The notes beneath the pieces were generated by a model that ran no database searches, had not been told where the DNA came from, and saw nothing but the letters and a program-made list of their open reading frames with translations. From the sequence record NC_101838.1: a stretch of 64,000 bases of DNA, one strand, 5' to 3'. Position numbers and translations under genes: made by a program. Within the stretch, counting starts at the first letter, position 1, and each line of letters opens with the position of its first letter. The DNA is from a phage. Shown piece by piece: positions 4,708 to 62,915 of this stretch.

Positions 4708-4953
4708 ATGAACAAAGGGTGGACATTTGTAGACGGCGTTAAAAACATGCCTCTAGGAAAGTATATTGTAGCCATGGCAGATGAGAATGGCAAGGTTGAT
4801 TTCGGAGTTTGCGAGGTTGTTCTTGCAGGATCTGGTGACTATGCTCACAAAACTGGGATAATTAACGGTCATTTCTACTTTGATTACAACCCTGTTGTGG
4901 CGTATATGGCTATGCCAGAGTTCGAGCTCCCAAAGGAAGGTGCAGATGTTTAA
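4708..4953 (+). CDS. hypothetical protein (81 aa)
   Basis: ORF preceded by ccaggag SD-like motif. Confidence 0.5.
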   Translation: MNKGWTFVDGVKNMPLGKYIVAMADENGKVDFGVCEVVLAGSGDYAHKTGIINGHFYFDYNPVVAYMAMPEFELPKEGADV

Positions 4954-5143
4954 GCTTAAATCTGCATGGAACATCGCTGTGGGGGACGAGATCCGTATCC
5001 CAGGTGGAAAGACCATTATGAAAATATCTCGTATCGAGTACGAAGGTGATCGTGTATTTCATATCTTTGCAGAAGATGGTCGAGAAATTTATATACAGGC
5101 AGGCTCTCACATCTATATTCGTAAGAAAGGGGAGGACAAATGA
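4946..5143 (+). CDS. hypothetical protein (65 aa)
   Basis: Internal ATG of track ORF 4880..5143, overlapping the upstream stop; aaggaagg SD-like motif. Confidence 0.45.
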   Translation: MFKLKSAWNIAVGDEIRIPGGKTIMKISRIEYEGDRVFHIFAEDGREIYIQAGSHIYIRKKGEDK

Positions 5144-5469
5144 CAGAGATCATCATTTCAACTGCAGGGTATGTATTCCTGACAATCATTGCGCTGGCTA
5201 TTCTGGTGGCGGTGTATGGATTTGTTATCCTTCCTATCCTTGAGACATTTAGTTTGTGTCGGTGTTGGAGAAAAGCTTACGGTCCACAACCATGGAAGGA
5301 CTGGCCCCACCTGGTGCGCTTAGCGTTCTCTTATGCTTACGATCACTCCAGTAGTGCATGCATAACCGGATACCACGCCCACAACTGGAGCTGGGAAGGG
5401 TTGAGGAAATGGAATGTTACAAAGACCATACCTCTGCGCATGTACAAACCTAAAAACAAAGACAACTGA
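5140..5469 (+). CDS. hypothetical membrane protein (109 aa)
   Basis: N-terminal hydrophobic helix (TAGYVFLTIIALAILVAVYGFVILPIL); aaaggggagg SD-like motif; start overlaps upstream stop. Confidence 0.5.
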   Translation: MTEIIISTAGYVFLTIIALAILVAVYGFVILPILETFSLCRCWRKAYGPQPWKDWPHLVRLAFSYAYDHSSSACITGYHAHNWSWEGLRKWNVTKTIPLRMYKPKNKDN

Positions 5470-5499
5470 TACTTGAAAATTCCTGGCATATCAAGTATA

Positions 5500-5960
5500 A
5501 GGGGGATTTCTAAAATGGATTTCCTCCTTTTGATATTTCACCGGGCTGGATATTTTAAAATTCTTAGAAAATCAGAAAATGGATCGAAAACTAAAATGGA
5601 TTTTTCAGAGTAGGCGCGACAAGCTGAATAACTCATCCTATCGTTTGCACCATATTCCAGGCCACCATTATAGATTTCCCACACATGCTAACCTCCCTCT
5701 ACTAGAACTTCCTCCACTTACCCTTGACCTTCTATGGTAACAATCTAACCGCTATCTTGAAGTTGCGGTGCAGCTTTCCAGGTACTCGATCTACTTTTCA
5801 TTTCAGGGCTTGGATTTTCTGAAAATTTTTCTCGATAAATTTCTCAGTACTCGATCTGTTTTTCGTTTTCTGAATCGGATTTTCTGGAAATCGTTCCGGC
5901 TCTCAACCTGAAATTTTTGGGGACGAAATCGATTTTTCGTTTTCAGAAATGGATTTTTAA
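5500..5960. repeat. iteron-like degenerate direct repeats (core GGATTTT) in ORF-free region
   Basis: At least 8 copies of (A)TGGATTTT(C)-like motifs and two copies of CAGTACTCGATCT about 65 bp apart. Confidence 0.6.
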
Positions 5961-6066
5961 AATTTCTATATGGGAATATTTTAGTGGATACTATTTTATA
6001 GTAAATTGTTACGGAGGGTAATTAGCGTGCTAATTAAATTTATTAAATGCGAGGAGTTCTCATTTA

Positions 6067-6285
6067 GAATCTTGAATGATAATCATTCTCGTTTGCAGAA
6101 TAACGGGCAGGCCCGGTGATTGTCTCCCGGCCCCTGTTGCCCCGGCTTGTTATTATAGTATCACACAGGACAAAGAAAGCAAGGATTTTTTGCATAAATT
6201 TTTAAATGATAATGATAACCGTTCTCATTTTATGCAGCGCTCATCCCTGGTGGTTGTCTCCCCCGTCACCGGTGCCTGCCGTCCT
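6067..6285. repeat. two copies of an approximately 75-bp direct repeat
   Basis: aatgataat..tctc.ttt..gcag...ggtgattgtctccc seen at about 6067-6140 and again at about 6208-6285. Confidence 0.5.
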
Positions 6286-6482
6286 TTCGATAGGTATATT
6301 GTGCCACCTGTCGGGGCCGCTGTCAACACTTTTCAAAAAATTTTTCTAACCTGATGCGCTAACCGCTGCAACCTGGCGGGGCCAGCCTGGCAGGACCTAA
6401 CTGACCAGGTGGGAGAGGGTGAAATCTTGCAAACCTGGTAGGCCCATGCTGTAGGGTAAACAATTGAAGAGGAGGTACAAAA

Positions 6483-6620
6483 ATGAAAGGTAATGCTACT
6501 CACCTGGGAAATGTAGTGATTAATGATACAGAAGCGCGGGAACATAAAGAAGAGTACGAAAAAATGGTGGTTAACCTGGCGGGGGGGCGGCAGGTGGATT
6601 CTATCATAAAAATAATTTAA
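6483..6620 (+). CDS. small hypothetical protein (45 aa)
   Basis: Short ORF with strong SD (gaagaggagg) 7 nt upstream of ATG; below the track length cutoff. Confidence 0.3.
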   Translation: MKGNATHLGNVVINDTEAREHKEEYEKMVVNLAGGRQVDSIIKII

Positions 6621-6628
6621 AATAATCG

Positions 6629-6656
6629 TTGACAACAAGGTTAATCATGGTATTAT
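6629..6656 (+). promoter_or_regulatory. sigma70-like promoter (TTGACA-16-TATTAT)
   Basis: Consensus-like hexamers upstream of the ORF at 6707. Confidence 0.5.
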
Positions 6657-6706
6657 TACCCTACAAGGTGAACAACACCGCACTAACCAGTAAAGAGGAT
6701 AAATTT

Positions 6707-6904
6707 ATGAACGCATACGGGATCAAAGTACGTCGCAACACTCGCCAGGTGGTCACCGATCAAATGGTTTGCCAGGTGGACGTAACCATCAACAACGGGC
6801 AAGGCCTTTATAAATTCCGTCGCGGTCAGAGCTATACCCGGCAACAGCTTAATCGTTGCGCCCTGACAAAAGGACAGATCAACCACTGGTTTAATAAAAA
6901 ATAA
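6707..6904 (+). CDS. hypothetical protein (65 aa)
   Basis: Internal ATG with aaagaggataaa SD-like leader, downstream of promoter. Confidence 0.45.
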   Translation: MNAYGIKVRRNTRQVVTDQMVCQVDVTINNGQGLYKFRRGQSYTRQQLNRCALTKGQINHWFNKK

Positions 6905-6968
6905 GTATTGACATATAGTCCGACACCAAATACACTAAAAGCACAAAAGACACTAAGAGGATAAAATC

Positions 6969-7367
6969 ATGAAAACCACTACCTTTAATTTTGATAATGC
7001 GGACTTTTCTTTTTCTGATGTCAAGAACTGCCGCCGTGATCGTGGATTTTACAAGGCTTATAATCTGGTGGGCCTGGACGATGACAATAATTTGCACGAA
7101 GTAGCTGAGATCCGGTATTATGCCGCCGTCAGCGGGAACACTCACTACTGCGTGTTTTGGATTCACGACAACAAGAACAATAAGTACGGTTATACTGGCG
7201 GCAAGGCGAGCGGTCACGGTTACGATAAAGCTAACGCAGCACTTGAGAGCGCATTAAATGCTATGGGGATCACTGCCGACGGCTGGATCTACGAAGAAGA
7301 GTTTTTGTCGGCACTTGCTGACCACCTGGGCTATAAAAAACACATTGTAACATGCGCCCACGAATAA
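6969..7367 (+). CDS. hypothetical protein (132 aa)
   Basis: ORF with ctaagaggataaaatc leader. Confidence 0.55.
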   Translation: MKTTTFNFDNADFSFSDVKNCRRDRGFYKAYNLVGLDDDNNLHEVAEIRYYAAVSGNTHYCVFWIHDNKNNKYGYTGGKASGHGYDKANAALESALNAMGITADGWIYEEEFLSALADHLGYKKHIVTCAHE

Positions 7368-7449
7368 AAATCATTGACACGCTGCAAAATTTAAGTAAAC
7401 TAGACACAAAAGGCGGGAATGTTTCCCGCCAGCACAAAGGAAAAAGATC

Positions 7450-7845
7450 ATGAATAAGAACGTACGCCGCATCATGAACGAACTGGCAAACGATGAAAAA
7501 ATTATTGATATGCATTTGGTCAACATTTGCCGCCGTTGTGTAACATATAACAACCGCGCCGCAAAAGCGCGTGAGATGAACGCAAAAGGCACCTTAAAGC
7601 CCTTTCAGGTGGTTGTAAAATCTATAACTAGCGCAGCAGGCCAGGCGCAGGACCACAACAACGAGAGCGCTAATATTGATCCGTCTTACGTAATGAAACG
7701 GATCCGGACTTGCAAGAATAAAGAGCAGGTATATAACGTCATAGATTGGCTGGACTCCCTGGGCGATGTGGTTTACAATAGGTTTTCTGCAGCTATCGAG
7801 ATCCAGCTTGACAGATTGGACGGGAAAGTACTAAAAACTTATTGA
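7450..7845 (+). CDS. hypothetical protein (131 aa)
   Basis: ORF preceded by a leader hairpin (ggcgggaatgtttcccgcc) and aaaggaaaaag SD-like motif. Confidence 0.55.
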   Translation: MNKNVRRIMNELANDEKIIDMHLVNICRRCVTYNNRAAKAREMNAKGTLKPFQVVVKSITSAAGQAQDHNNESANIDPSYVMKRIRTCKNKEQVYNVIDWLDSLGDVVYNRFSAAIEIQLDRLDGKVLKTY

Positions 7846-7846
7846 G

Positions 7847-7892
7847 TTTATTTTTAGATGGCCTTGACACCAGGGCCATCAATAAAGTAAAC
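7847..7892 (+). promoter_or_regulatory. repeated intergenic cassette: promoter -35 embedded in a stem-loop (copy 1)
   Basis: gtttatttttagatggccTTGACAccagggccatcaataaagtaaac; inverted repeat gatggcc/ggccatc encloses TTGACA. Confidence 0.5.
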
Positions 7893-7925
7893 TAACCACA
7901 GTTGAGCGGAAAAGGAGGCTTAAAG

Positions 7926-8045
7926 ATGAGCACTACACGCCAGCACACAAAGGTAACCATCATCGTTTGCATCATTGGGTACATCCTGGCGCAAATGTTG
8001 ATGGGTAGCGCCAACGGTGTCGCAAAATTTTTCTTAAACTTTTAA
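7926..8045 (+). CDS. small hydrophobic peptide (39 aa)
   Basis: Strong SD (aaaaggagg) before ATG; hydrophobic core IIVCIIGYILAQMLMG; below track cutoff. Confidence 0.35.
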   Translation: MSTTRQHTKVTIIVCIIGYILAQMLMGSANGVAKFFLNF

Positions 8046-8073
8046 TTGACAAGCTAACTTAAATCGATATAAT
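8046..8073 (+). promoter_or_regulatory. sigma70-like promoter (TTGACA-16-TATAAT)
   Basis: Perfect consensus hexamers upstream of the ORF at 8125. Confidence 0.6.
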
Positions 8074-8124
8074 AAGCACATAAACGGGAAAACTTCCCAG
8101 AACACACAAAAGGAGAAAAACACC

Positions 8125-8466
8125 ATGACTACTATGACCGCCTCAGAAAAAGCTATGCAGATCGCTGAACTGAAAAAACAGATCGCAGACCTTGAGAATA
8201 AGATCGATAACTTTGAAATCGACGAGGACAAGTACGACGAAAACTATGATGAATGGTTAGACGAGATCTACGGCGAAATTATGATCGGAAACATTTCTTT
8301 TCTTCCGTCGCGTATCCTCAAGGAGCTAGATCCTATCGCTTACCGCTGCGGATTTAGCGACTACATCGACAGCCTGGATATTGAGGACGATGAAGAATAC
8401 CAGGAATTACAGACAGAGTTAGAAGAAGCAAAAGAAGAGCTTGCGGAGCTGGAAGAAAACGAGTAA
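8125..8466 (+). CDS. hypothetical acidic coiled-coil protein (113 aa)
   Basis: ORF with aaaaggagaaaaac leader; highly acidic, heptad-like N-terminus. Confidence 0.55.
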   Translation: MTTMTASEKAMQIAELKKQIADLENKIDNFEIDEDKYDENYDEWLDEIYGEIMIGNISFLPSRILKELDPIAYRCGFSDYIDSLDIEDDEEYQELQTELEEAKEELAELEENE

Positions 8467-53426: not shown

Positions 53427-54710
53427 TCATTCCAGAACCTCCCAAGTGTCTGGGTTAACATTTCGGACGCAGATACCGACAGGGAATTGGTAGTTGTTGT
53501 CTTCTGTCCTTGCTTGATATTTGAAGGTGACAAACTTGCCGATCATTTCCTGCATCCTGTCATAGCTACGCTCCTCGTGCGTGCCTTTCATCTTCATTTT
53601 AACAACAACACCTTCCTTGTCAACACAGATAAGAACACCTTCATCATTCTTATCTTTCTCAACGTCAATAACTTTCACCTCTGCGTCGTTGAACTTTTTC
53701 CATTTCAATGCTTCAGATGTTCGCTGACCATACTCATATTTACCGCAGAAGTTACGCATAATGGTACCTTCATATCCTTCAGACATAAATATACCAACAG
53801 ACTCTTCGCACCGATCAACCGTATATGCAAGCTCTGCATCAACAACCTTAATATGATCAAGCATCAAAGAAGTAATAGCACCGTTTGCCTCCATAAGATC
53901 CTTACAGCGACCAGACTCTGTTTCAGGATCCCACCACACCTTATCGCTAGGGATATCGAAAATATGATACTCTAGGTCGTAGCTGCAGTACCCACCGTAA
54001 CGCAAATCATCACGAACAGGCTCAACATCGACAGGAATATCTACCTTGTTGAAGTTTTTGTATGTTGATAAGCCTGCCTTAATTGCTGCATGACGGCGTT
54101 TTTTATCTGCCTCATAGTCTTTATCGATCTCGGCCTGAATCTCTTCCTGTGTGCGCCACCGTTTAGCAAGAGACACTATTTTCTGCAAAGGAAGACCATG
54201 AATGTATAGTTCCCCATCAAGTTGTTTAATCCCAGTGGTAGAATGGAAAGAACGAAGTTGCTCTAAAAGCTTTCCTTGAATAGGGTAGGACTTATTACCA
54301 CGGGAAATAAATTTAGGCTCACCATTTTGGAAAACAACAAGCAGACGAAGGCCATCTAACTTACGCAAGATCCAGCAAGGTAATTTAAGTGCCTTGCCAC
54401 GCTTCAGGTAGTCATGCACCAGCATGGGTAAAAGATCAACACCCTGCTCGCAATCTTCCATGTTTTCAACATACCCCAGACGGACTTGTTTTTCCCACTT
54501 GCTGATAGCCTCAAGCTCGGCCTGTTGCTCAGCTGTAGTCTCGTTGGCACGACCTACGTTCTTAGGTGTGCATACCGTCTCTTTGTACTGCAGTTTACCA
54601 TCAAGCTTGCCAAACTCTACGATAACCTTATCACCATCCGTGAATACTTTCCACTGTTGGTAGCTGCCATCTTTATTCAGTGCGTACAGTGTTGTTTTGA
54701 TCTGATGCAT
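53427..54710 (-). CDS. ATP-dependent DNA ligase
   Basis: Nucleotidyltransferase motif I ILRKLDGLR (KxDG), motif IV EGYEGTIMR, motif V KWKK; 427 aa. Confidence 0.75.
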   Translation of the reverse strand: MHQIKTTLYALNKDGSYQQWKVFTDGDKVIVEFGKLDGKLQYKETVCTPKNVGRANETTAEQQAELEAISKWEKQVRLGYVENMEDCEQGVDLLPMLVHDYLKRGKALKLPCWILRKLDGLRLLVVFQNGEPKFISRGNKSYPIQGKLLEQLRSFHSTTGIKQLDGELYIHGLPLQKIVSLAKRWRTQEEIQAEIDKDYEADKKRRHAAIKAGLSTYKNFNKVDIPVDVEPVRDDLRYGGYCSYDLEYHIFDIPSDKVWWDPETESGRCKDLMEANGAITSLMLDHIKVVDAELAYTVDRCEESVGIFMSEGYEGTIMRNFCGKYEYGQRTSEALKWKKFNDAEVKVIDVEKDKNDEGVLICVDKEGVVVKMKMKGTHEERSYDRMQEMIGKFVTFKYQARTEDNNYQFPVGICVRNVNPDTWEVLE

Positions 54711-55336: not shown

Positions 55337-56050
55337 TTAAATATACTCTGTTACATCCTTGAAGCTCGAAGGCTTCATAATCTTACCTTTACTGTCAAGG
55401 AATATAATAACTTTATTACCGTTGTAGAACTCCTCTTTAGCAACGAAACCTTCGTAGCGACCACCAAAACGACGCTCAAGATCTTCAATCTCTAACTCTA
55501 TGAGCAATTCAGTAGACATATCTGCACTGGCACCGTGAGAATATCGTAGATGGTTGATCCGTGCAAACTTGCTGTCATTAGATTTGAGAACCTTCCGCAT
55601 CATCCCACACACATCGCCGCGAAGCTGGAACAGCAAAGCTGTTGACAACTCCGCTAAGCGGTAAGCTGACGCTCTTTGCTTGGATGTGTTTTTCGCAGCG
55701 ATCAGTGTATCATAGAACTCACCGATCTTGAACTTAAGACCTCGTGGATTATCAAACAGGTTTGACCACTTTTCGTGATTATCATTAACAAGATAAGCGG
55801 CATAACTTGTGACAACGTGAAGATCGCAGGCCTCTTTTAGCAGGTGATCTCCACCATCACCTTTCTCCAGCTCTTCCAAAACCTCATTGAACTCTTCCTC
55901 AATGAAGCTAAGCTGTAATTCGAATGGTGTGTATGATTTTTTCACTTTAGCTGCCACACGGTTCCAGTTTTCCACCCAGTTGGCAGACCAAAGGTAGTTT
56001 TCAGGCTGAGACAGTTTTTCCAGGTTGTCGATCAGTTTAGTATTCAGCAT
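55337..56050 (-). CDS. hypothetical protein with MazG-like NTP pyrophosphohydrolase-type motif (237 aa)
   Basis: EEEFNEVLEELEKGDGGDHLLKEACDL resembles the MazG EE..E...E...D...ExxD.L signature; C-terminal half unassigned. Confidence 0.4.
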   Translation of the reverse strand: MLNTKLIDNLEKLSQPENYLWSANWVENWNRVAAKVKKSYTPFELQLSFIEEEFNEVLEELEKGDGGDHLLKEACDLHVVTSYAAYLVNDNHEKWSNLFDNPRGLKFKIGEFYDTLIAAKNTSKQRASAYRLAELSTALLFQLRGDVCGMMRKVLKSNDSKFARINHLRYSHGASADMSTELLIELEIEDLERRFGGRYEGFVAKEEFYNGNKVIIFLDSKGKIMKPSSFKDVTEYI

Positions 56051-56063
56051 TAAAGGTCTCCTT

Positions 56064-56825
56064 TTAAAGTTCCATAAAGTTTTCTACAGTTTCAATAAAT
56101 GCTTTATCAGAGAAAGCGTCAACAGCACCGTTAAACCATACAGGGATCCCGCGATCCTCATATTGATAAAGGTCGCTACGTGAAATGCCACTTCCATCTG
56201 CACTCTGCGAGTCATACTTGTTTACAATCAGCAGTTTTGTGCCTTTACAAGTAGCAGGAAACAATTCCCAGTTAAAATTAATAACTGTGTTAGAACAACC
56301 TACTAGGATCACCATATCATTGCTTGTGAGAGATGTCAACAGGTCATACATGTCTGTATACTTAGGAGCAACCTCACCGAAGAACACTACATTGGGCTTA
56401 ACCCAGGTATACTTGCCTGTATCTACCTCCGTGTATCCGATATTTTTAATTACATCATTACCTTCAGCATCTTCGTAGGTGATTTCAGGCAAATACCCGT
56501 GGACATGTAAAATATCTTCATGTTTTACACCAGCACGCTCCAGCAAATCATCTACATTGGTGGTAAGGTTGATCACACGACCAGACCAGCGGGAATACCA
56601 CTCAGCGATCCGAAGATGTGCAAGGTTAGGATCAACACTGCCCAGAGCTACACGACGTGCATTGTAAAAGTCATGCACCTTATAGTAATTCTTGGCAAAG
56701 GTGTGGATGTTGCACACCTCATCGATGCTGAAATTCTCCCACATTGCAGTGCTACCAGATCGGAAAGTGGGAATACCAGATTCAGCGCTCAAACCAGCAC
56801 CGGAGATAATAATCAGTCGTCGCAT
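56064..56825 (-). CDS. Sir2-family (sirtuin-like) NAD-dependent enzyme lacking an obvious zinc ribbon
   Basis: ISGAGLSAESGIPTFRS (Rossmann/NAD motif), TTNVDDL, HVHG (catalytic His), VVFFGE, ILVGCSNTV; no CxxC...CxxC pairs seen. Confidence 0.8.
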   Translation of the reverse strand: MRRLIIISGAGLSAESGIPTFRSGSTAMWENFSIDEVCNIHTFAKNYYKVHDFYNARRVALGSVDPNLAHLRIAEWYSRWSGRVINLTTNVDDLLERAGVKHEDILHVHGYLPEITYEDAEGNDVIKNIGYTEVDTGKYTWVKPNVVFFGEVAPKYTDMYDLLTSLTSNDMVILVGCSNTVINFNWELFPATCKGTKLLIVNKYDSQSADGSGISRSDLYQYEDRGIPVWFNGAVDAFSDKAFIETVENFMEL

Positions 56826-56833
56826 AAGTGTCC

Positions 56834-57184
56834 TCAGTAGATGTTTTGTTTAATCTCTATTCCAAACTTCTTGAATGAGTCAGCAGCAAGCATAAATTTA
56901 CGAGCTGCCGATGGATTAGAAGTATGCACGAAAATAATCACGTTGTCAATAAGTGGTGGCTTTCCGAATACAAGTTTCTCCTCTAGCGCAGAGAAGCAGT
57001 CGTACCCTTCAAGCACTTCACCTAGATCATTGTCAAAATACCACTCAGATACGCGTCTGTAGAGCTTTCTCTTATCATTAAGAAAATCCATAAACTCAGA
57101 AGAATTCTTTAGCCACAGAGCGTCTGGGAGTCCATAATCTGACGGATCTCTAAAATCATCAAGCCACACAATCCACTTCTTCAT
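56834..57184 (-). CDS. hypothetical protein (116 aa)
   Basis: ORF between the RNA ligase and Sir2 genes; overlapping stop/start on both sides. Confidence 0.5.
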   Translation of the reverse strand: MKKWIVWLDDFRDPSDYGLPDALWLKNSSEFMDFLNDKRKLYRRVSEWYFDNDLGEVLEGYDCFSALEEKLVFGKPPLIDNVIIFVHTSNPSAARKFMLAADSFKKFGIEIKQNIY

Positions 57185-58116
57185 TGCATATAGTCCTCGT
57201 TGTGGAAATAGTAGTCCAGTATCTCACGACGCTCCTGCTCTAATAAGCAATTCCACACATCTTCTGTATAGTTGCTACGAATAAATTTTACCATACCGTA
57301 AAACTCTTCGTCAACACGTTTAAAGATATCATCATCCCAAATCTTCCAAGCTTTACCCCTCATTACTGCCTTCCGTGCCAGATAGTATGGAGACTTGATC
57401 TTCAGCTGCAGATCATAAGGGTAGTAAGGCTTACGAATCATATACCCTTCACCTCTTGTTTCTGCAGCTAATTCTTTTGCATAGCTGAACGGAATTTCAC
57501 GCACAGTGTTAGGACGTTTTGCACCAAGGTATTTGGCAATCCCATCTAAAGCTGCTTCTGGTAGCATTATTCCAGAATCATTATATCTGCAACCTATCAA
57601 ATATGCGCCATGGTCTTCTTGAACAATATGCGGATCTGAAGGGTGACAAATTTCAAACATGAATGTCATGTTTTCATTGCCCATAACCTTCTTGATAAGA
57701 TCTAAATTACCACATTGCTCTTGGATGGTTTCCTTTGCAAGGTTACAATATGGAGAATCAAGAGACCCGGTTGTTGAGAACAATAGGTCACCTTTATGAG
57801 ATGATACCACACCAAGGAATCCGTTCTTTTTCTCTACCGCAGTCACAAGCTTATTGTCAGGCAGGTTGGTGGAGTTTTCTCCCAAGTTAAACACTTTTGT
57901 GAAGGGCCATGCCACAACATTTCCTTCATTACCTACAACAATGCCTCGGCACTCCAGTAAACGAGGGGACAAATGCCATAAATTGTTGTAAAATACTTTT
58001 CTAGCATATTTATAGATCTTTAACCCGAGATCTGGGTAATACCTACTGGTTGCAAGACCTTTGTCAACTAGGTCGTCTGCATTAAAATACTTCATTATAT
58101 GTTCCTCATTTGTCAT
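57181..58116 (-). CDS. rnlA: RNA ligase, T4 Rnl1 (RnlA)-like
   Basis: LSPRLLECRGIVV and KVFNLGENSTNLP match recalled T4 Rnl1 segments (LPDALECRGIMF, KFFNLNENP); motif I VEKKNG (KxDG/NG) near residue 97, motif IV EGYMIRK, motif V KIKSP. Confidence 0.7.
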   Translation of the reverse strand: MTNEEHIMKYFNADDLVDKGLATSRYYPDLGLKIYKYARKVFYNNLWHLSPRLLECRGIVVGNEGNVVAWPFTKVFNLGENSTNLPDNKLVTAVEKKNGFLGVVSSHKGDLLFSTTGSLDSPYCNLAKETIQEQCGNLDLIKKVMGNENMTFMFEICHPSDPHIVQEDHGAYLIGCRYNDSGIMLPEAALDGIAKYLGAKRPNTVREIPFSYAKELAAETRGEGYMIRKPYYPYDLQLKIKSPYYLARKAVMRGKAWKIWDDDIFKRVDEEFYGMVKFIRSNYTEDVWNCLLEQERREILDYYFHNEDYMQ

Positions 58117-58159
58117 TTTGTCAGTCTATCCTGCCACACAAATAACTTAGTGTCAACAC

Positions 58160-58188
58160 TTGAAATTAACAAAACAGTTAGGTATACT
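58160..58188 (+). promoter_or_regulatory. sigma70-like promoter (TTGAAA-17-TATACT) in divergent intergenic region
   Basis: Hexamers upstream of the kinase gene; the minus-strand block starts 45 nt to the left. Confidence 0.5.
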
Positions 58189-58216
58189 ACCGTTGAAATT
58201 AAAACGGAGGGTCGCT

Positions 58217-58627
58217 ATGTCTAAAATGCTATATATCGTGCGTGGTCTACCAGGGTCTGGCAAATCAACACTGGCAAATGCGCTATCTTTAGAGGGTCTG
58301 TATCCACATTTTGAGAACGACATGTTCTGGTATGACGATGACGGCAATTACAACTGGGATGCAAGTAAAGTAACACTCGCAGCAAAATGGTGCAAAGATA
58401 ACGTAGAAGATATGATGCGTATGGGATACGACCGTATCGTGGTAAGTAATACGTTTACAAAAGAAAAACATGTGCAGGAATATGTTGACATGGCAATCAC
58501 TCATGGGTATAGTTATACCGTGATCGTGGTTGAAAACCGCCACGGTAATAAAAGCATTCATGATGTTCCAGACAAGGTTGTGGATCGTATGGAACGCCAG
58601 CTTAAAAACTGCATTAAACTTAAATGA
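58217..58627 (+). CDS. P-loop kinase, polynucleotide 5'-kinase-like
   Basis: Walker A LYIVRGLPGSGKSTLA resembles the T4 Pnk kinase N-terminus (GCPGSGKSTWA); ggagg SD; 136 aa. Confidence 0.6.
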   Translation: MSKMLYIVRGLPGSGKSTLANALSLEGLYPHFENDMFWYDDDGNYNWDASKVTLAAKWCKDNVEDMMRMGYDRIVVSNTFTKEKHVQEYVDMAITHGYSYTVIVVENRHGNKSIHDVPDKVVDRMERQLKNCIKLK

Positions 58628-58634
58628 GGAATGT

Positions 58635-59189
58635 ATGAAATACTTTGTAACAAGCGACACACACTTTCTCCACCAGCGGGTCATGGAGTTTGATTCATGT
58701 CAAAAACACAGATCTCAGTATGATCACAATCTTGACAGTATGAATGCGGGAATCATCACCAAGTGGAACTCTGTTGTGTCACCTGCAGACACTGTGTTCC
58801 ACTTGGGAGATATTGCATGCACTAATGATAAGAATATCAACAAATTGCTCCCAGATATTCTAAATATGTTGAACGGACATATTATTCTTGTTCGTGGCAA
58901 CCATGACACAAGGACGACTGTCAAAATTATGAAAGAGTTCGGTCATGAGGTTGTAGATTATTACGAGCTTCGCCACAACAAGAATTTGATCTGTATGAGC
59001 CATTACCAGTTTGCAAAGTGGAACAGAAAGCCTCACGGATCAGTCCAACTGTTCGGTCATGCTCACGGAACCACACAACAGTTGTTTGGCAGGCAGCTTG
59101 ATGTCGGTTGGGATGTGTGGGGGAGACTCTTACCATTAGAAGAGGCATACCGTATTGCAATGAGTTTTGATATTGACAGCAGGGAGTAA
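58635..59189 (+). CDS. calcineurin-like metallophosphoesterase
   Basis: Metallophosphatase motifs SDTHF, GDI, GNHD, GHAH in canonical order; starts 8 nt after the kinase stop. Confidence 0.7.
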   Translation: MKYFVTSDTHFLHQRVMEFDSCQKHRSQYDHNLDSMNAGIITKWNSVVSPADTVFHLGDIACTNDKNINKLLPDILNMLNGHIILVRGNHDTRTTVKIMKEFGHEVVDYYELRHNKNLICMSHYQFAKWNRKPHGSVQLFGHAHGTTQQLFGRQLDVGWDVWGRLLPLEEAYRIAMSFDIDSRE

Positions 59190-62102: not shown

Positions 62103-62177
62103 GCCCTGTTAGCTTAGTGGATAAAGCAGCGGCCTTCTAAGCCGTTGACACTGGTTCGAGTCCAGTACGGGGTGCCA
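62103..62177 (+). tRNA. tRNA-Arg (anticodon UCU)
   Basis: Manual cloverleaf fold: 7-bp acceptor, D-arm agtggata, anticodon loop cuUCUaa, T-loop ttcgagt, encoded CCA. Confidence 0.85.
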
Positions 62178-62181
62178 AATT

Positions 62182-62268
62182 GGGGAGTTATCCCGTAGAG
62201 GTAGCGGTGTAGACTGTAAATCTATTGTCATTGCGACTCGGGTGGTTCGACTCCACCACTCCCCACCA
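62182..62268 (+). tRNA. tRNA-Tyr (anticodon GUA)
   Basis: Perfect 7-bp acceptor (ggggagt/actcccc), anticodon loop cuGUAaa, long variable arm, T-loop ttcgact, encoded CCA. Confidence 0.8.
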
Positions 62269-62382
62269 AATTTATATTTTTAGATGCATAAATAATACAG
62301 ATAATGGCATTGATATTTATCGTCGTTTATACTAGTCACTAACTGCTCGAAAATCAGTGTCATTATCAGTATTATTTATAAA

Positions 62383-62473
62383 GGAGGGTAGGGAGCAATG
62401 GTGCTCAAGCGGTCTTGAAAACCGTCCCGTTGAGGATGACTCGATGATGGTTCGATTCCATTACTCTCCGCCA
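62383..62473 (+). tRNA. tRNA-Ser (anticodon UGA)
   Basis: Acceptor ggagggt/actctcc, anticodon loop cuUGAaa, long variable arm, T-loop ttcgatt, encoded CCA. Confidence 0.8.
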
Positions 62474-62571
62474 CATTGTTGACCTTGTAATTAAGCGAAA
62501 GTCGGAAGCAGAACCGGATTATCAAATGTTACAGTCGTCATCGCCGACTAGCAACATGGTCAACATACTGA

Positions 62572-62670
62572 GCTAGGTAAGCCCTTTGGCAAGGGCGAGG
62601 ATTTTTAATCCTGAAAATAGACGAGGTAGTCGTTGAATACATAGGTGGTTCGATTCCATCACCTAGCACC
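62572..62670 (+). ncRNA. aberrant tRNA-like element (about 97 nt) lacking a canonical anticodon arm
   Basis: Good acceptor (gctaggt/acctagc), D-arm and T-arm (ggtgg-ttcgatt-ccatc), but the region between holds two 5-bp/5-nt-loop hairpins instead of a 7-nt anticodon loop. Confidence 0.35.
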
Positions 62671-62675
62671 TTTTT

Positions 62676-62751
62676 GCTGATGTAGCACAATCGGTAGTGC
62701 AATTGATTTGTAATCAATAGGTTGTAGGTTCAAGTCCTGCCATCAGCACCA
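62676..62751 (+). tRNA. tRNA-Thr (anticodon UGU)
   Basis: Acceptor gctgatg/catcagc, anticodon stem attga/tcaat with loop uuUGUaa, encoded CCA. Confidence 0.8.
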
Positions 62752-62752
62752 A

Positions 62753-62827
62753 GGCCCTGTAGCTGGAAGGTTCAAGCAAGCGACTCATAATCGCCAGACG
62801 GTGGTTCAATTCCACCCAGGGCCACCA
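62753..62827 (+). tRNA. tRNA with CAU anticodon (Met or lysidine-Ile)
   Basis: Acceptor ggccctg/cagggcc, anticodon loop cuCAUaa, T-loop ttcaatt, encoded CCA. Confidence 0.75.
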
Positions 62828-62838
62828 AATAGTAAATA

Positions 62839-62915
62839 CTCCGCGTAGCTCAGCTTGGTAGAGCGCCTGATTTGGGATCAGGAGGTCGAGTGTTCGAATC
62901 ACTCCGTGGAGACCA
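62839..62915 (+). tRNA. tRNA-Pro (anticodon UGG)
   Basis: Acceptor ctccgcg/cgtggag, canonical D-arm agctcagcttggtagagc, anticodon loop uuUGGga, T-loop ttcgaat, encoded CCA. Confidence 0.85.

Follow-up and report, generated by a model that had tools for sequence, protein, structure and literature searches.

A predicted heal-and-seal RNA repair module of Rnl1-type ligase, stand-alone kinase and metallophosphoesterase in a Vequintavirus genome

In this study, we asked what task might be shared by an Rnl1-like RNA ligase and by the P-loop kinase and calcineurin-type phosphoesterase that are encoded next to it on the opposite strand of a phage genome. The stretch of DNA analysed (64,000 nucleotides of NC_101838.1, referred to here as the window) comes from a Vequintavirus (rV5-like) Escherichia coli phage and is 99.6% identical to phages nimi and Bas48. 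An initial annotation had proposed an RNA repair module at this place, and the sequence comparisons described below lead us to the view, which we hold with a probability of roughly 0.65, that ligase, kinase and metallophosphoesterase (MPE) make up the conserved core of a pathway by which phages heal and seal broken RNA. As a computational prediction, the heal-and-seal idea is already known and is not new: Iyer, Burroughs & Aravind (2022, Viruses 14:1977, PMC9503650) have described the phage V5 neighbourhood and predicted that it is an NAD-linked system of RNA repair. The V5/Proteus phage Mydo type of these authors (section 3.7.3, Fig. 5f; PMC9503650) has an identical gene set, namely a T4-like tRNA ligase, cREC, sirtuin, kinase, MazG pyrophosphatase and calcineurin-like phosphoesterase, in the same phage genus, and the role predicted for it, the clean-up and ligation of 2',3'-cyclic-phosphate RNA ends, is also alike. 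The window holds the gene content of their type 2 sirtuin-centred NAD-utilising neighbourhood, all six genes lying inside 55337-59189. However, that account is centred on the sirtuin, lists the kinase as a 'nucleotide kinase' and calls the phosphoesterase 'occasional' (PMC9503650), whereas in the 60 loci sampled here it is the ligase-kinase-MPE trio that appears as the widespread core, with cREC, sirtuin and MazG as restricted accessories. The Bas48 record annotates an 'RNA ligase' and a 'polynucleotide kinase', and a literature search covering phage RNA repair as anti-defence, Vequintavirinae and anticodon nucleases, the sirtuin in relation to Tpt1 and cREC, and the rV5 ligase found no experimental work on the module.

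Table 1. Genes and other features of the locus, with positions counted from the first nucleotide of the window
Feature	Position	Strand	Basis and remarks
MazG-like nucleotide pyrophosphohydrolase, 237 aa	55337..56050	-	phrog_671
Sirtuin (class III, CobB/SIRT5-like), 253 aa	56064..56825	-	PF02146, phrog_2162
cREC (cyclic-phosphate-processing receiver-like) protein, 116 aa	56834..57184	-	PF20274, phrog_1479
Rnl1-family ATP-dependent RNA ligase, 'short' type	57181..58116	-	PF09511, phrog_562
Intergenic region between divergent transcription blocks	58117..58216		Consensus matches, GC skew
Stand-alone P-loop kinase, polynucleotide-kinase clade ('mini-Pnk'), 136 aa	58217..58627	+	AAA_33, fold
Binuclear metallophosphoesterase (MPE), aq_1665-like clade, 184 aa	58635..59189	+	Metallophos_2, Metallophos; proposed 3'-end healing
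tRNA cluster, context only	62103..62915	+	ARAGORN, Rfam; annotated in Bas48

The three open reading frames lie where the initial annotation had placed them (Table 1). The gap between the kinase and MPE genes, given there as 8 nt, is in fact a 7 nt spacer (GGAATGT) between the kinase TGA at 58625-58627 and the MPE ATG at 58635, and the GAGGA Shine-Dalgarno sequence of the MPE gene overlaps the kinase stop codon. The divergent arrangement is real, but it coincides with a border in the genome between a long minus-strand block and a plus-strand block: at about 58 kb, where ligase and kinase diverge, the GC skew reverses its sign, and the annotated genes of Bas48 are all on the minus strand left of this point and all on the plus strand right of it. 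Divergent transcription is also peculiar to Vequintavirus, the three genes being adjacent and co-directional elsewhere. A sigma-70-like TTGAAA-17-TATACT match at 58160-58188 on the plus strand is followed by a GGAGGG Shine-Dalgarno sequence and the ATG at 58217, all of these being consensus matches only. A bidirectional promoter specific to the module was rejected, since transcription changes direction here on the scale of the whole genome and promoter-like matches show no enrichment, with 18 counted where 13.5 +/- 3.7 would be expected. Taking the three genes together as a module was justified, but ending it at 57181 was not, since the cREC, sirtuin and MazG-like genes continue past the ligase in a tightly packed series on the same strand. 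Here the cREC start overlaps the ligase stop (ATGA), the sirtuin gene begins 8 nt past the cREC stop and the MazG-like gene 13 nt past the sirtuin stop.

The ligase is a clear Rnl1 family member. It matches the full RNA_lig_T4_1 model (PF09511, positions 1-227) with 55.4 bits against a gathering cut-off of 28.3 (1e-14) and phrog_562 at 3e-65, and its family profile matches T4 Rnl1 (2c5u) at 9e-13, with residues 48-236 aligned to T4 residues 51-249; a direct sequence search of the PDB gave no significant match. The adenylyltransferase motifs are present on alignment. Motif I, which contains the adenylylation lysine, is K96-K-N-G99 (T4 K99-x-D-G102), and the equivalents of other T4 residues are R57 (R54), K74/F76 (K75/F77), E155 (E159), E223-G224 (E227-G228), K239/K241 (K240/K242) and Y245 (Y246). 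Nucleotidyltransferase motifs I, III, IV and V and the equivalents of the Rnl1-specific residues Arg54, Lys75 and Phe77 are thus all kept, and K96-K-N-G99, E155, E223-G224, K239/K241, R57 and K74/F76 are invariant across 35 family members; only T4 Lys119 is not kept, an invariant Ser114 taking its place. The C-terminal region differs, comprising about 65 residues against about 120 in T4 Rnl1 and giving no credible alignment; the profile match stops at T4 residue 249, and the T4-type C-terminal domain (residues ~255-374) is absent. Since the match to the T4 RnlA equivalog model TIGR02308 reaches only 38.4 bits where its cut-off is 242, this mismatch means that the protein belongs to the Rnl1 family and is not an orthologue of T4 RnlA. 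The C-terminal domain of T4 Rnl1 is thought to confer tRNA specificity, and in its absence the substrate of the phage ligase need not be tRNA. The protein is predicted to be adenylylated by ATP and to seal 3'-OH/5'-PO4 RNA ends. Its reading frame encodes 311 aa; a second ATG at 58095 has GAGGA 7 nt upstream, the family consensus begins with MKF at that residue, and this ATG is probably the true start, giving a protein of 304 aa. The short form of Rnl1 occurs in phages of Escherichia, Klebsiella, Pseudomonas, Vibrio, Acinetobacter and Streptomyces.

The kinase matches AAA_33 (42.7 against a cut-off of 27), and comparison of its structure model placed polynucleotide and tRNA kinases nearest, not nucleoside or dNMP kinases; its best profile matches are of the same kind. 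A direct sequence search of the PDB gave no significant match and BLASTP against T4 Pnk aligned the P-loop only, whereas hhalign with the family alignment gave a match over the full kinase domain. The P-loop GxxxxGK(S/T) is present as G10-x4-G15-K16-S17, an invariant Asp35 aligns within one residue of T4 Asp34/35 (the general base; Cth Asp38), and the invariant E106-N-R108-H-G aligns with T4 K-R122-NSK-R126-G, which holds the lid arginines Arg122 and Arg126. In the T4 and Cth enzymes, the phosphate 3' of the terminal nucleoside is bound by an Arg located three residues beyond the catalytic Asp (T4 Arg38, Cth Arg41). No Arg is found at this position in the phage kinase, where the residue is aromatic (Trp38 in the window, Phe in the consensus 'EADMFF'), so acceptor binding must differ, and a polynucleotide substrate is what we infer. 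A HAD 3'-phosphatase (DxDxT) was not found in the Pfam search, and the hhalign match spans T4 residues 1-141 only; the 136-aa protein is a kinase only and not a bifunctional Pnkp of the T4 type. We predict that it is a polynucleotide 5'-kinase acting on 5'-OH RNA ends.

The calcineurin-type identity of the phosphoesterase was borne out by matches to Metallophos_2 (28.3 against a cut-off of 27) and Metallophos (27.8 against 21.5). Its binuclear metal site is complete (D8/H10, G58-D59, G88-N89-H90-D91, H123 and G141-H142-x-H144), and these residues are invariant in 45 homologues; the motifs DxH, GD, GNH(D/E), H and GHxH are a feature of the superfamily and not of the clade. The protein is not of the generic Ser/Thr-phosphatase type. 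Neither is it in the style of bacterial Pnkp, as the initial annotation had supposed: the clade signatures GDxxDRG/GNHE are missing and the closest fold is not lambda phosphatase or CthPnkp. Its nearest characterised structural neighbours are instead LpxH, MJ0936, YfcE, a Pseudomonas putida MPE and Mre11, that is, small-molecule or generic phosphodiesterases and nucleases. In both sequence and fold the MPE resembles, over the whole domain, Aquifex aeolicus aq_1665 (PDB 1XM7; phrog_547), a cellular protein from structural genomics with no assigned activity or pathway, and this likeness therefore says nothing about function. A literature search found no functional paper on aq_1665 (COG4186). We propose the aq_1665-type MPE as the predicted 3'-end healing enzyme of the module.

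The argument for a common pathway comes from gene linkage across phages. The loci compared extend to at most 20 kb and are in some cases incomplete, so that the counts are affected. Among 60 dereplicated IMG/VR viral loci anchored on the ligase, the kinase lies within 10 kb in 56 (93%) and within 300 bp in 36, and the MPE within 10 kb in 53 (88%) and within 300 bp in 33. Both genes are on the strand of the ligase except in the Vequintavirus locus. Of 64 loci anchored on the kinase, 44 have an MPE gene and 36 an RNA ligase gene (Rnl1-type 18, Rnl2-type 21); 33 loci have both partners, 17 neither, 11 the MPE only and three the ligase only, and the presence of MPE and ligase is associated (Fisher p = 9e-6). 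Linkage is looser from the MPE side, where 31 of 57 loci have an RNA ligase and 11 of 57 the kinase within 10 kb. In 12 loci a single reading frame encodes kinase and ligase as a fusion with the kinase N-terminal; two of these frames are truncated where the contig ends, and the others are 421-432 aa long. One further locus seemed to have a kinase-MPE fusion, but domain analysis showed that it does not. The trio is back to back in the order MPE-Rnl-kinase in Phapecoctavirus ukendt, its members are near one another in Pakpunavirus PaoP5, and in a freshwater phage overlapping kinase and MPE genes are followed by an Rnl2-type ligase. The association of the three genes is far beyond chance. The claim that a split kinase and phosphatase beside the ligase make up an RNA repair module is favoured by this linkage in many phage lineages and by the fusions, and together with the Rnl2-type pairing these give the heal-and-seal role good inferential support.

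According to this model, the P-loop, Asp35 and Arg108 of the mini-Pnk would move the gamma-phosphate of an NTP to a 5'-OH, while the MPE would open a 2',3'-cyclic phosphate and then take off the resulting phosphate to leave a 3'-OH. The short Rnl1-type ligase, adenylylated at Lys96, would then activate the 5'-phosphate and seal the break. The substrates are most likely, on present comparisons, tRNAs cut by host defence nucleases, which the module is predicted to mend. T4 Pnkp and Rnl1 mend tRNA-Lys that PrrC has cut, and the 2',3'-cyclic phosphodiesterase/phosphatase of Clostridium thermocellum Pnkp is a domain of the MPE superfamily (PMC2190708, PMC3592404). A wider reading is more tentative, and we would put it at somewhat under even odds: that the aq_1665-type MPE is an uncharacterised RNA 3'-healing class which forms with the mini-Pnk a portable two-gene cassette for Rnl1- and Rnl2-type ligases, and that tRNA repair of this kind is widespread among phages and separate from the T4 Pnkp, bacterial Pnkp, HD-Pnk and Trl1 pathways. 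In Vequintavirus this reading would add the zinc-less sirtuin and cREC as a means of NAD-dependent 2'-phosphate removal, a non-orthologous replacement of Tpt1/KptA.

The kinase and MPE could also act without sharing a pathway with the ligase, the MPE as a small-molecule phosphodiesterase of host immune cyclic nucleotides, 2',3'-cNMPs or nucleotide-pool compounds and the kinase on some small molecule, all being neighbours as early host-takeover genes. The closest characterised folds of the MPE (LpxH, MJ0936, YfcE) would suit this, as would the name given to the kinase by Iyer et al. (PMC9503650). Of the loci anchored on the MPE, about half lack an RNA ligase within 10 kb and four-fifths lack the kinase; distant MPE homologues occur in phages beside HNH or ThyX genes without ligase or kinase, and 17 of the 64 kinase-anchored loci have neither partner nearby. 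We nevertheless consider it unlikely, because co-occurrence on the ligase side is high, mostly at less than 300 bp, on the same strand and in lineages that differ in gene order; moreover, kinase-ligase fusions occur, the kinase stop codon is 7 nt from the MPE start or overlaps it in distant phages, and NMP and small-molecule kinases come far below polynucleotide and tRNA kinases in the fold comparison of the kinase.

A slightly poorer prospect is that kinase and MPE clean 5'-OH/3'-phosphate or otherwise damaged DNA ends, for instance after attack by host nucleases or in replication, on behalf of the nearby ATP-dependent DNA ligase or of a DNA/RNA-hybrid ligase. T4 Pnkp also acts on DNA. A DNA ligase gene lies at 53427-54710, 2.5 kb from the RNA ligase, and one is found within 10 kb in 30 of the 60 ligase-anchored loci; furthermore, the MPE is weakly similar to PdeM, a 'ligase-associated DNA damage response endonuclease' (TIGR04123, 1.6e-4, far under the cut-off). 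However, the tight adjacency is to Rnl1- and Rnl2-type ligases, a DNA ligase being within 300 bp in one locus of the 60, the fusions join the kinase to Rnl1 and never to a DNA ligase, the ligase matches the T4 Rnl1 profile, and cREC has been reported in RNA-repair and ADPr contexts only (PMC9503650). Least probable by far is that the ligase is mainly a tail-fibre attachment catalyst with irrelevant neighbours. The sole point in its favour is the label 'RNA ligase and tail fiber protein attachment catalyst' taken from T4 gp63 and carried by many records and by phrog_562 (category 'tail'), but this was transferred through homology to the nucleotidyltransferase domain, and the C-terminal part of the ligase does not match gp63. 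In addition, the gene lies among nucleic-acid enzymes and not tail genes, and its conserved partners are enzymes of the end-healing type.

The cREC, sirtuin and MazG genes may form an accessory NAD-dependent branch, which is much less certain than the core. Within the 60 ligase-anchored loci, cREC was found in seven, the sirtuin in nine and MazG in 10. The cREC protein matches PF20274 at 9e-14 and phrog_1479 at 6e-33 and has acidic, Thr and Lys residues of the receiver type (D9 D10, D51/D53, T88/S89 and K96); a role in cyclic-phosphate processing has been predicted for it (PMC7824862, PMC9503650). The sirtuin matches PF02146 at 7e-28, phrog_2162 at 1.5e-108 and E. coli CobB (1s5p) at 3e-21, and keeps the GAGxS and HG motifs, the latter with the catalytic His, while the alignment shows none of the zinc-ribbon cysteines. 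In the Vequintavirus branch as predicted by Iyer et al. (2022), who propose the sirtuin as a KptA/Tpt1 analogue (PMC9503650), cREC would open the cyclic phosphate to a 2'-PO4, which the sirtuin would strip in an NAD-dependent manner as KptA/Tpt1 does. We regard the predicted replacement of Tpt1 by the sirtuin as doubtful. The MazG-like protein matches phrog_671 at 6e-22 and had no match in the Pfam search; an orthologue is encoded near the ligase in phage ukendt, and MazG is listed in the phage V5 neighbourhood (PMC9503650).

Compared with T4 Pnkp (PseT) and Rnl1 (gp63), the module has no HAD phosphatase, its kinase stands alone, and 3' healing is assigned, as we propose, to a separate metallophosphoesterase; the ligase lacks the C-terminal domain and has Ser in place of Lys119, and cREC, sirtuin and MazG are extra. 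Bacterial Pnkp systems (C. thermocellum Pnkp/Hen1; Capnocytophaga Pnkp1/Rnl/Hen1) are among the closest known. With fungal and plant Trl1 and Tpt1 the module has in common a ligase of Pfam family PF09511 and a kinase partner of the Pnk clade, sometimes fused, although the ligase profile gave no match to Trl1 structures at E < 1. Trl1 is a ligase-kinase-CPD protein, and Tpt1 then removes the 2'-phosphate in an NAD-dependent reaction. The phage fusions have the opposite order, with the kinase N-terminal to the ligase, and the module has neither a 2H cyclic phosphodiesterase nor Tpt1/KptA; the sirtuin-as-Tpt1 prediction would make the Vequintavirus version Trl1/Tpt1-like (PMC9503650).

Should the pathway work as we suggest, it would provide a function for the large family of ~130-aa 'predicted kinases' (more than 7,900 clusters were matched in one search), for the short Rnl1 form across the six host genera listed above and for an MPE clade whose only solved structure, 1XM7, dates from 2004. 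It would also bear on which therapeutic phages (rV5-like, phi92-like, Pakpunavirus) escape anticodon-nuclease defences, and the sirtuin and cREC branch, if true, would be new NAD-dependent RNA-processing chemistry. Repair of tRNA would then be a common means of counter-defence in phages far outside the T4-like group, next to the replacement tRNAs that phages encode. About 3 kb downstream of the module the window itself carries a cluster of tRNA genes (Arg-TCT, Tyr-GTA, Ser-TGA, an atypical Lys-like tRNA, Thr-TGT, Met/Ile-CAT and Pro-TGG), which may represent a complementary strategy of tRNA replacement.

In this analysis, we assign a probability of roughly two in three to the reading that the Rnl1-family RNA ligase, the 136-aa P-loop kinase (mini-Pnk) and the 184-aa metallophosphoesterase (MPE) of this phage form the core of an RNA-repair system. 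According to this reading, the mini-Pnk would phosphorylate the 5'-OH, the MPE, which is of the aq_1665 type, would convert the cyclic phosphate to a 3'-OH, and the short Rnl1 would seal the break via a Lys96-AMP intermediate. The core resembles T4 Pnkp plus Rnl1 and bacterial Pnkp in function but differs from them in family membership. The 4 kb around the module are 99.6% identical to Escherichia phages nimi (MN850626) and CarlMeissner/Bas48 (MZ501054), which places the window in Vequintavirus, among the rV5-like E. coli myoviruses, and share at least 90% identity with all but one of 119 matching records, the majority of them named Escherichia phages. Eighteen unannotated 'Campylobacter phage' records (including MG065658, MG065661 and MG065682) are about 97% identical to the E. 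coli Vequintavirus region, and C. jejuni is given as host in 16 of the records matching this region; the 'Campylobacter phage' records look like mislabelled or contaminant rV5-like genomes.

The module is already known as a prediction, since both the neighbourhood in phage V5 and its reading as RNA repair are in print and BASEL genomes carry matching annotations for the genes; Bas48 labels the three core genes 'RNA ligase', 'polynucleotide kinase' and 'putative phosphoresterase'. The neighbourhood has been described by Iyer, Burroughs and Aravind (Viruses 2022, section 3.7.3, Fig. 5f; PMC9503650), who proposed a novel NAD-utilising RNA-repair system with the sirtuin acting like KptA/Tpt1, and the cREC domain was defined in a 2021 jumbo-phage paper by the same authors. 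Literature searches found no experimental test of the module, which makes a good experimental target and will not surprise specialists.

The three ORFs lie exactly where the initial annotation had placed them, their domain calls all score above the Pfam curated thresholds, and they match PHROG families strongly. The ATG at 58095 is a likelier start of the ligase than position 58116, because the ribosome-binding site is better there and the family consensus starts at this position. The kinase and MPE genes are indeed adjacent; however, the spacer is 7 nt and not 8 nt as had been stated, and a Shine-Dalgarno sequence overlaps the kinase stop. The divergent arrangement of ligase and kinase was borne out as well, and its site coincides with a genome-scale change of transcription direction: the GC skew changes sign at ~58 kb, at the divergence point, and the annotated genes of Bas48 are all on the minus strand to its left and all on the plus strand to its right. 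Consensus matches to sigma-70-like sites occur in the 100-bp ligase/kinase spacer, with no enrichment over shuffles. Along the window, the skew is positive to ~20 kb, turns negative between 20 and 58 kb and is positive beyond 58 kb, and gene orientation tracks it in the part checked (53.4–62 kb); from this agreement, the divergence point (~58100) seems to mark one of the window's two large strand-switch boundaries, the other lying at ~20000.

Positions of the module genes and their neighbours in the window, and of kinase-ligase fusions in comparison loci
Feature	Position	Strand	Remarks
Rnl1-family ligase	57181-58116	-	ORF; Pfam above curated threshold; PHROG 3e-65
Kinase	58217-58627	+	ORF; Pfam above curated threshold; PHROG 1e-57
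Phosphoesterase (MPE)	58635-59189	+	ORF; Pfam above curated threshold; PHROG 2e-51
cREC			directly past ligase; start overlaps ligase stop (ATGA); PF20274 9e-14
Sirtuin	56064-56825	-	8 nt past cREC stop; CobB/SIRT5-like, 3e-21 to 1s5p
MazG-like pyrophosphohydrolase			13 nt past sirtuin stop
ATP-dependent DNA ligase			2.5 kb from RNA ligase, on its far side from kinase
Phage tRNA cluster			seven tRNAs; 3 kb to right of module
Atypical tRNA	62572-62670	+	97-99 nt; inside phage tRNA cluster
Kinase-ligase fusions, uncultivated phages	L044:9560-10825		also L046, L050-L052, L055, L057, L058, L060, L062-L064

The ligase is 26% identical to T4 Rnl1 over 182 residues (BLASTP, 9e-10), and a profile of 35 family members matched T4 Rnl1 (2c5u, 9e-13) and no other PDB entry. 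In agreement with the initial call of an Rnl1-like ligase, adenylyltransferase motifs are present: in the family alignment with T4 Rnl1 added, the catalytic elements are all conserved and invariant in the family, namely Arg57 (T4 Arg54), Lys74/Phe76 (Lys75/Phe77), motif I Lys96-x-Asn-Gly99 with the adenylylation site (Lys99-x-Asp-Gly102), Glu155 (Glu159), Glu223-Gly224 (Glu227-Gly228), Lys239/Lys241 (Lys240/Lys242) and Tyr245 (Tyr246). However, the phage family has an invariant Ser at the position of T4 Lys119, the C-domain of T4 Rnl1 comprises ~120 residues whereas the C-terminal region of the ligase has ~65 and does not match it, and the T4 RnlA equivalog model of NCBIfam gives 38 bits, its cut-off being 242. 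Judged by its sequence, the ligase belongs to the Rnl1 family as a distinct short type and is not a T4 RnlA orthologue; relatives occur in about 1,700 protein clusters and in 817 phage records.

The kinase had been read as Pnk-like, and its profile matches are in line with this, being to polynucleotide kinases: a fungal protein of this type (3e-6), T4 Pnk (7e-5), Pnkp1 (8e-5) and CthPnk of C. thermocellum (1e-3), with an hhalign probability of 96.3% to T4 Pnk over the whole domain. It belongs to a very large set of stand-alone ~130-aa proteins (>7,900 clusters matched), has a confident AlphaFold model (pLDDT 92), and among its invariant residues are the P-loop, Asp35, Asn78-Thr79 and Glu106-Asn-Arg108-His. 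T4 and Cth Pnk carry an Arg three residues past the catalytic Asp, whereas this family has an aromatic residue there, so that acceptor recognition differs; by membership, the kinase is in the Pnk clade but without one substrate-binding Arg.

The description of the phosphatase as 'bacterial-Pnkp style' is true for the superfamily only. The binuclear-metal ligands are all invariant (D8-x-H10, G58-D59, G88-N89-H90-D91, H123, G141-H142-x-H144) and the structure model is confident (pLDDT 93.7); however, the GDxxDRG and GNHE signatures of the Pnkp/lambda clade are not present in the MPE, and in the fold comparison the C. thermocellum Pnkp phosphatase domain scored 6.9 and ranked 47, compared with 8.8 for lambda phosphatase. 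That the MPE is not Pnkp-like is new here: it falls outside the Pnkp/lambda clade and is a member of an uncharacterised clade named after Aquifex aeolicus aq_1665 (PDB 1XM7). If it heals RNA 3' ends, its recruitment would be independent of bacterial Pnkp. Many MPE homologues have a conserved C-terminal D-H-H motif ~10-15 residues past the last strand, which is missing from the Vequintavirus MPE and its closest relatives. The closest non-Vequintavirus relative (63% identity; L178 9968-10549, from a 117.8-kb IMG/VR contig) has MazG-like and DNA-ligase genes nearby and neither kinase nor RNA ligase within 10 kb; therefore the MPE can be retained apart from its partners.

Gene linkage was assessed in IMG/VR loci collected with each of the three proteins as anchor and dereplicated at 90% identity, with ORFs called and scored with HMMs from our own alignments; the samples are the 80 best matches and hence non-random, and the loci span at most ~20 kb, some being incomplete. 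Around the ligase (n=60), a kinase lies within 10 kb in 56/60 loci and within 300 bp in 36/60, and an MPE in 53/60 and 33/60, respectively, with partners on the same strand throughout, the Vequintavirus locus being the sole exception. A role of the ligase in tail-fibre attachment is considered hardly credible. Within 10 kb, DNA ligase was found in 30/60 of these loci (1/60 within 300 bp); that the module heals DNA ends is, in our view, very improbable. Kinase-anchored loci (n=64) carry an MPE within 10 kb in 44 cases and within 300 bp in 24, always on the same strand, and the presence of MPE and ligase is associated (both 33, neither 17, MPE only 11, ligase only 3; Fisher p = 9e-6). It is improbable that MPE and kinase have unrelated small-molecule functions. 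Linkage is looser in the MPE-anchored loci (n=57), with any RNA ligase within 10 kb in 31 and a kinase in 11, ten of these 11 also having a ligase (p = 0.002), and distant MPE homologues occur in phage contexts without kinase or ligase.

New here is that ligase, mini-Pnk and MPE make up the core that is widespread, with the sirtuin branch as accessory: cREC (a cyclic-phosphate-processing receiver-like protein), sirtuin and MazG lie within 10 kb of the ligase in only 7, 9 and 10 of the 60 loci. In the window, the module extends beyond the three genes of the initial annotation to cREC, sirtuin and the MazG-like gene. The GAGxS and catalytic HG motifs are conserved in the sirtuin, and alignment to E. 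coli CobB revealed no zinc-ribbon cysteines at those positions. It is rather doubtful that the Vequintavirus-specific cREC, sirtuin and MazG provide an alternative 2'-phosphate route or process an ADP-ribose by-product.

The core itself varies. An RNA ligase lies within 10 kb in 36 of the 64 kinase-anchored loci, Rnl1-type in 18 and Rnl2-type in 21. The kinase-MPE pair travels with Rnl2-type ligases as well, which is also new; in a freshwater phage, kinase and MPE genes overlap and an Rnl2-type ligase follows 1.8 kb downstream of the MPE. A further new finding is the existence of kinase-ligase fusions, single ORFs with the kinase N-terminal, at 12 loci (one confirmed by translation); ten are complete (421-432 aa) and two, L057 and L064, end at the contig edge. 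The three dereplicated representatives of the fusions (L044, L050, L060) have no aq_1665-type MPE within 10 kb. Phapecoctavirus ukendt carries its genes in the order cREC ... MPE-Rnl-kinase, back to back on a single strand and close to DNA ligase and MazG, and in the Pakpunavirus PaoP5 MPE, Rnl and kinase lie inside 3 kb. In PaoP5, at 4896-8148, the ligase-kinase pair is directly followed by genes for ribose-phosphate pyrophosphokinase and nicotinamide phosphoribosyltransferase (NAD salvage), in a region with no sirtuin and no cREC; this arrangement is another physical link of the RNA-repair core to NAD metabolism.

The atypical tRNA in the cluster to the right of the module is annotated as tRNA-Lys (AAA) in Bas48; ARAGORN reports it as 'tRNA-???' with a 4-base anticodon, and Rfam tRNA gives only 35.5 bits. 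It folds into a cloverleaf in which UUU could be exposed on the anticodon arm, with an extra ~30-nt stem-loop at the variable region (MFE -34.2 kcal/mol, z = -3.7). Lys-type tRNAs do not usually have a long extra arm, and the classic PrrC target is tRNA-Lys(UUU).
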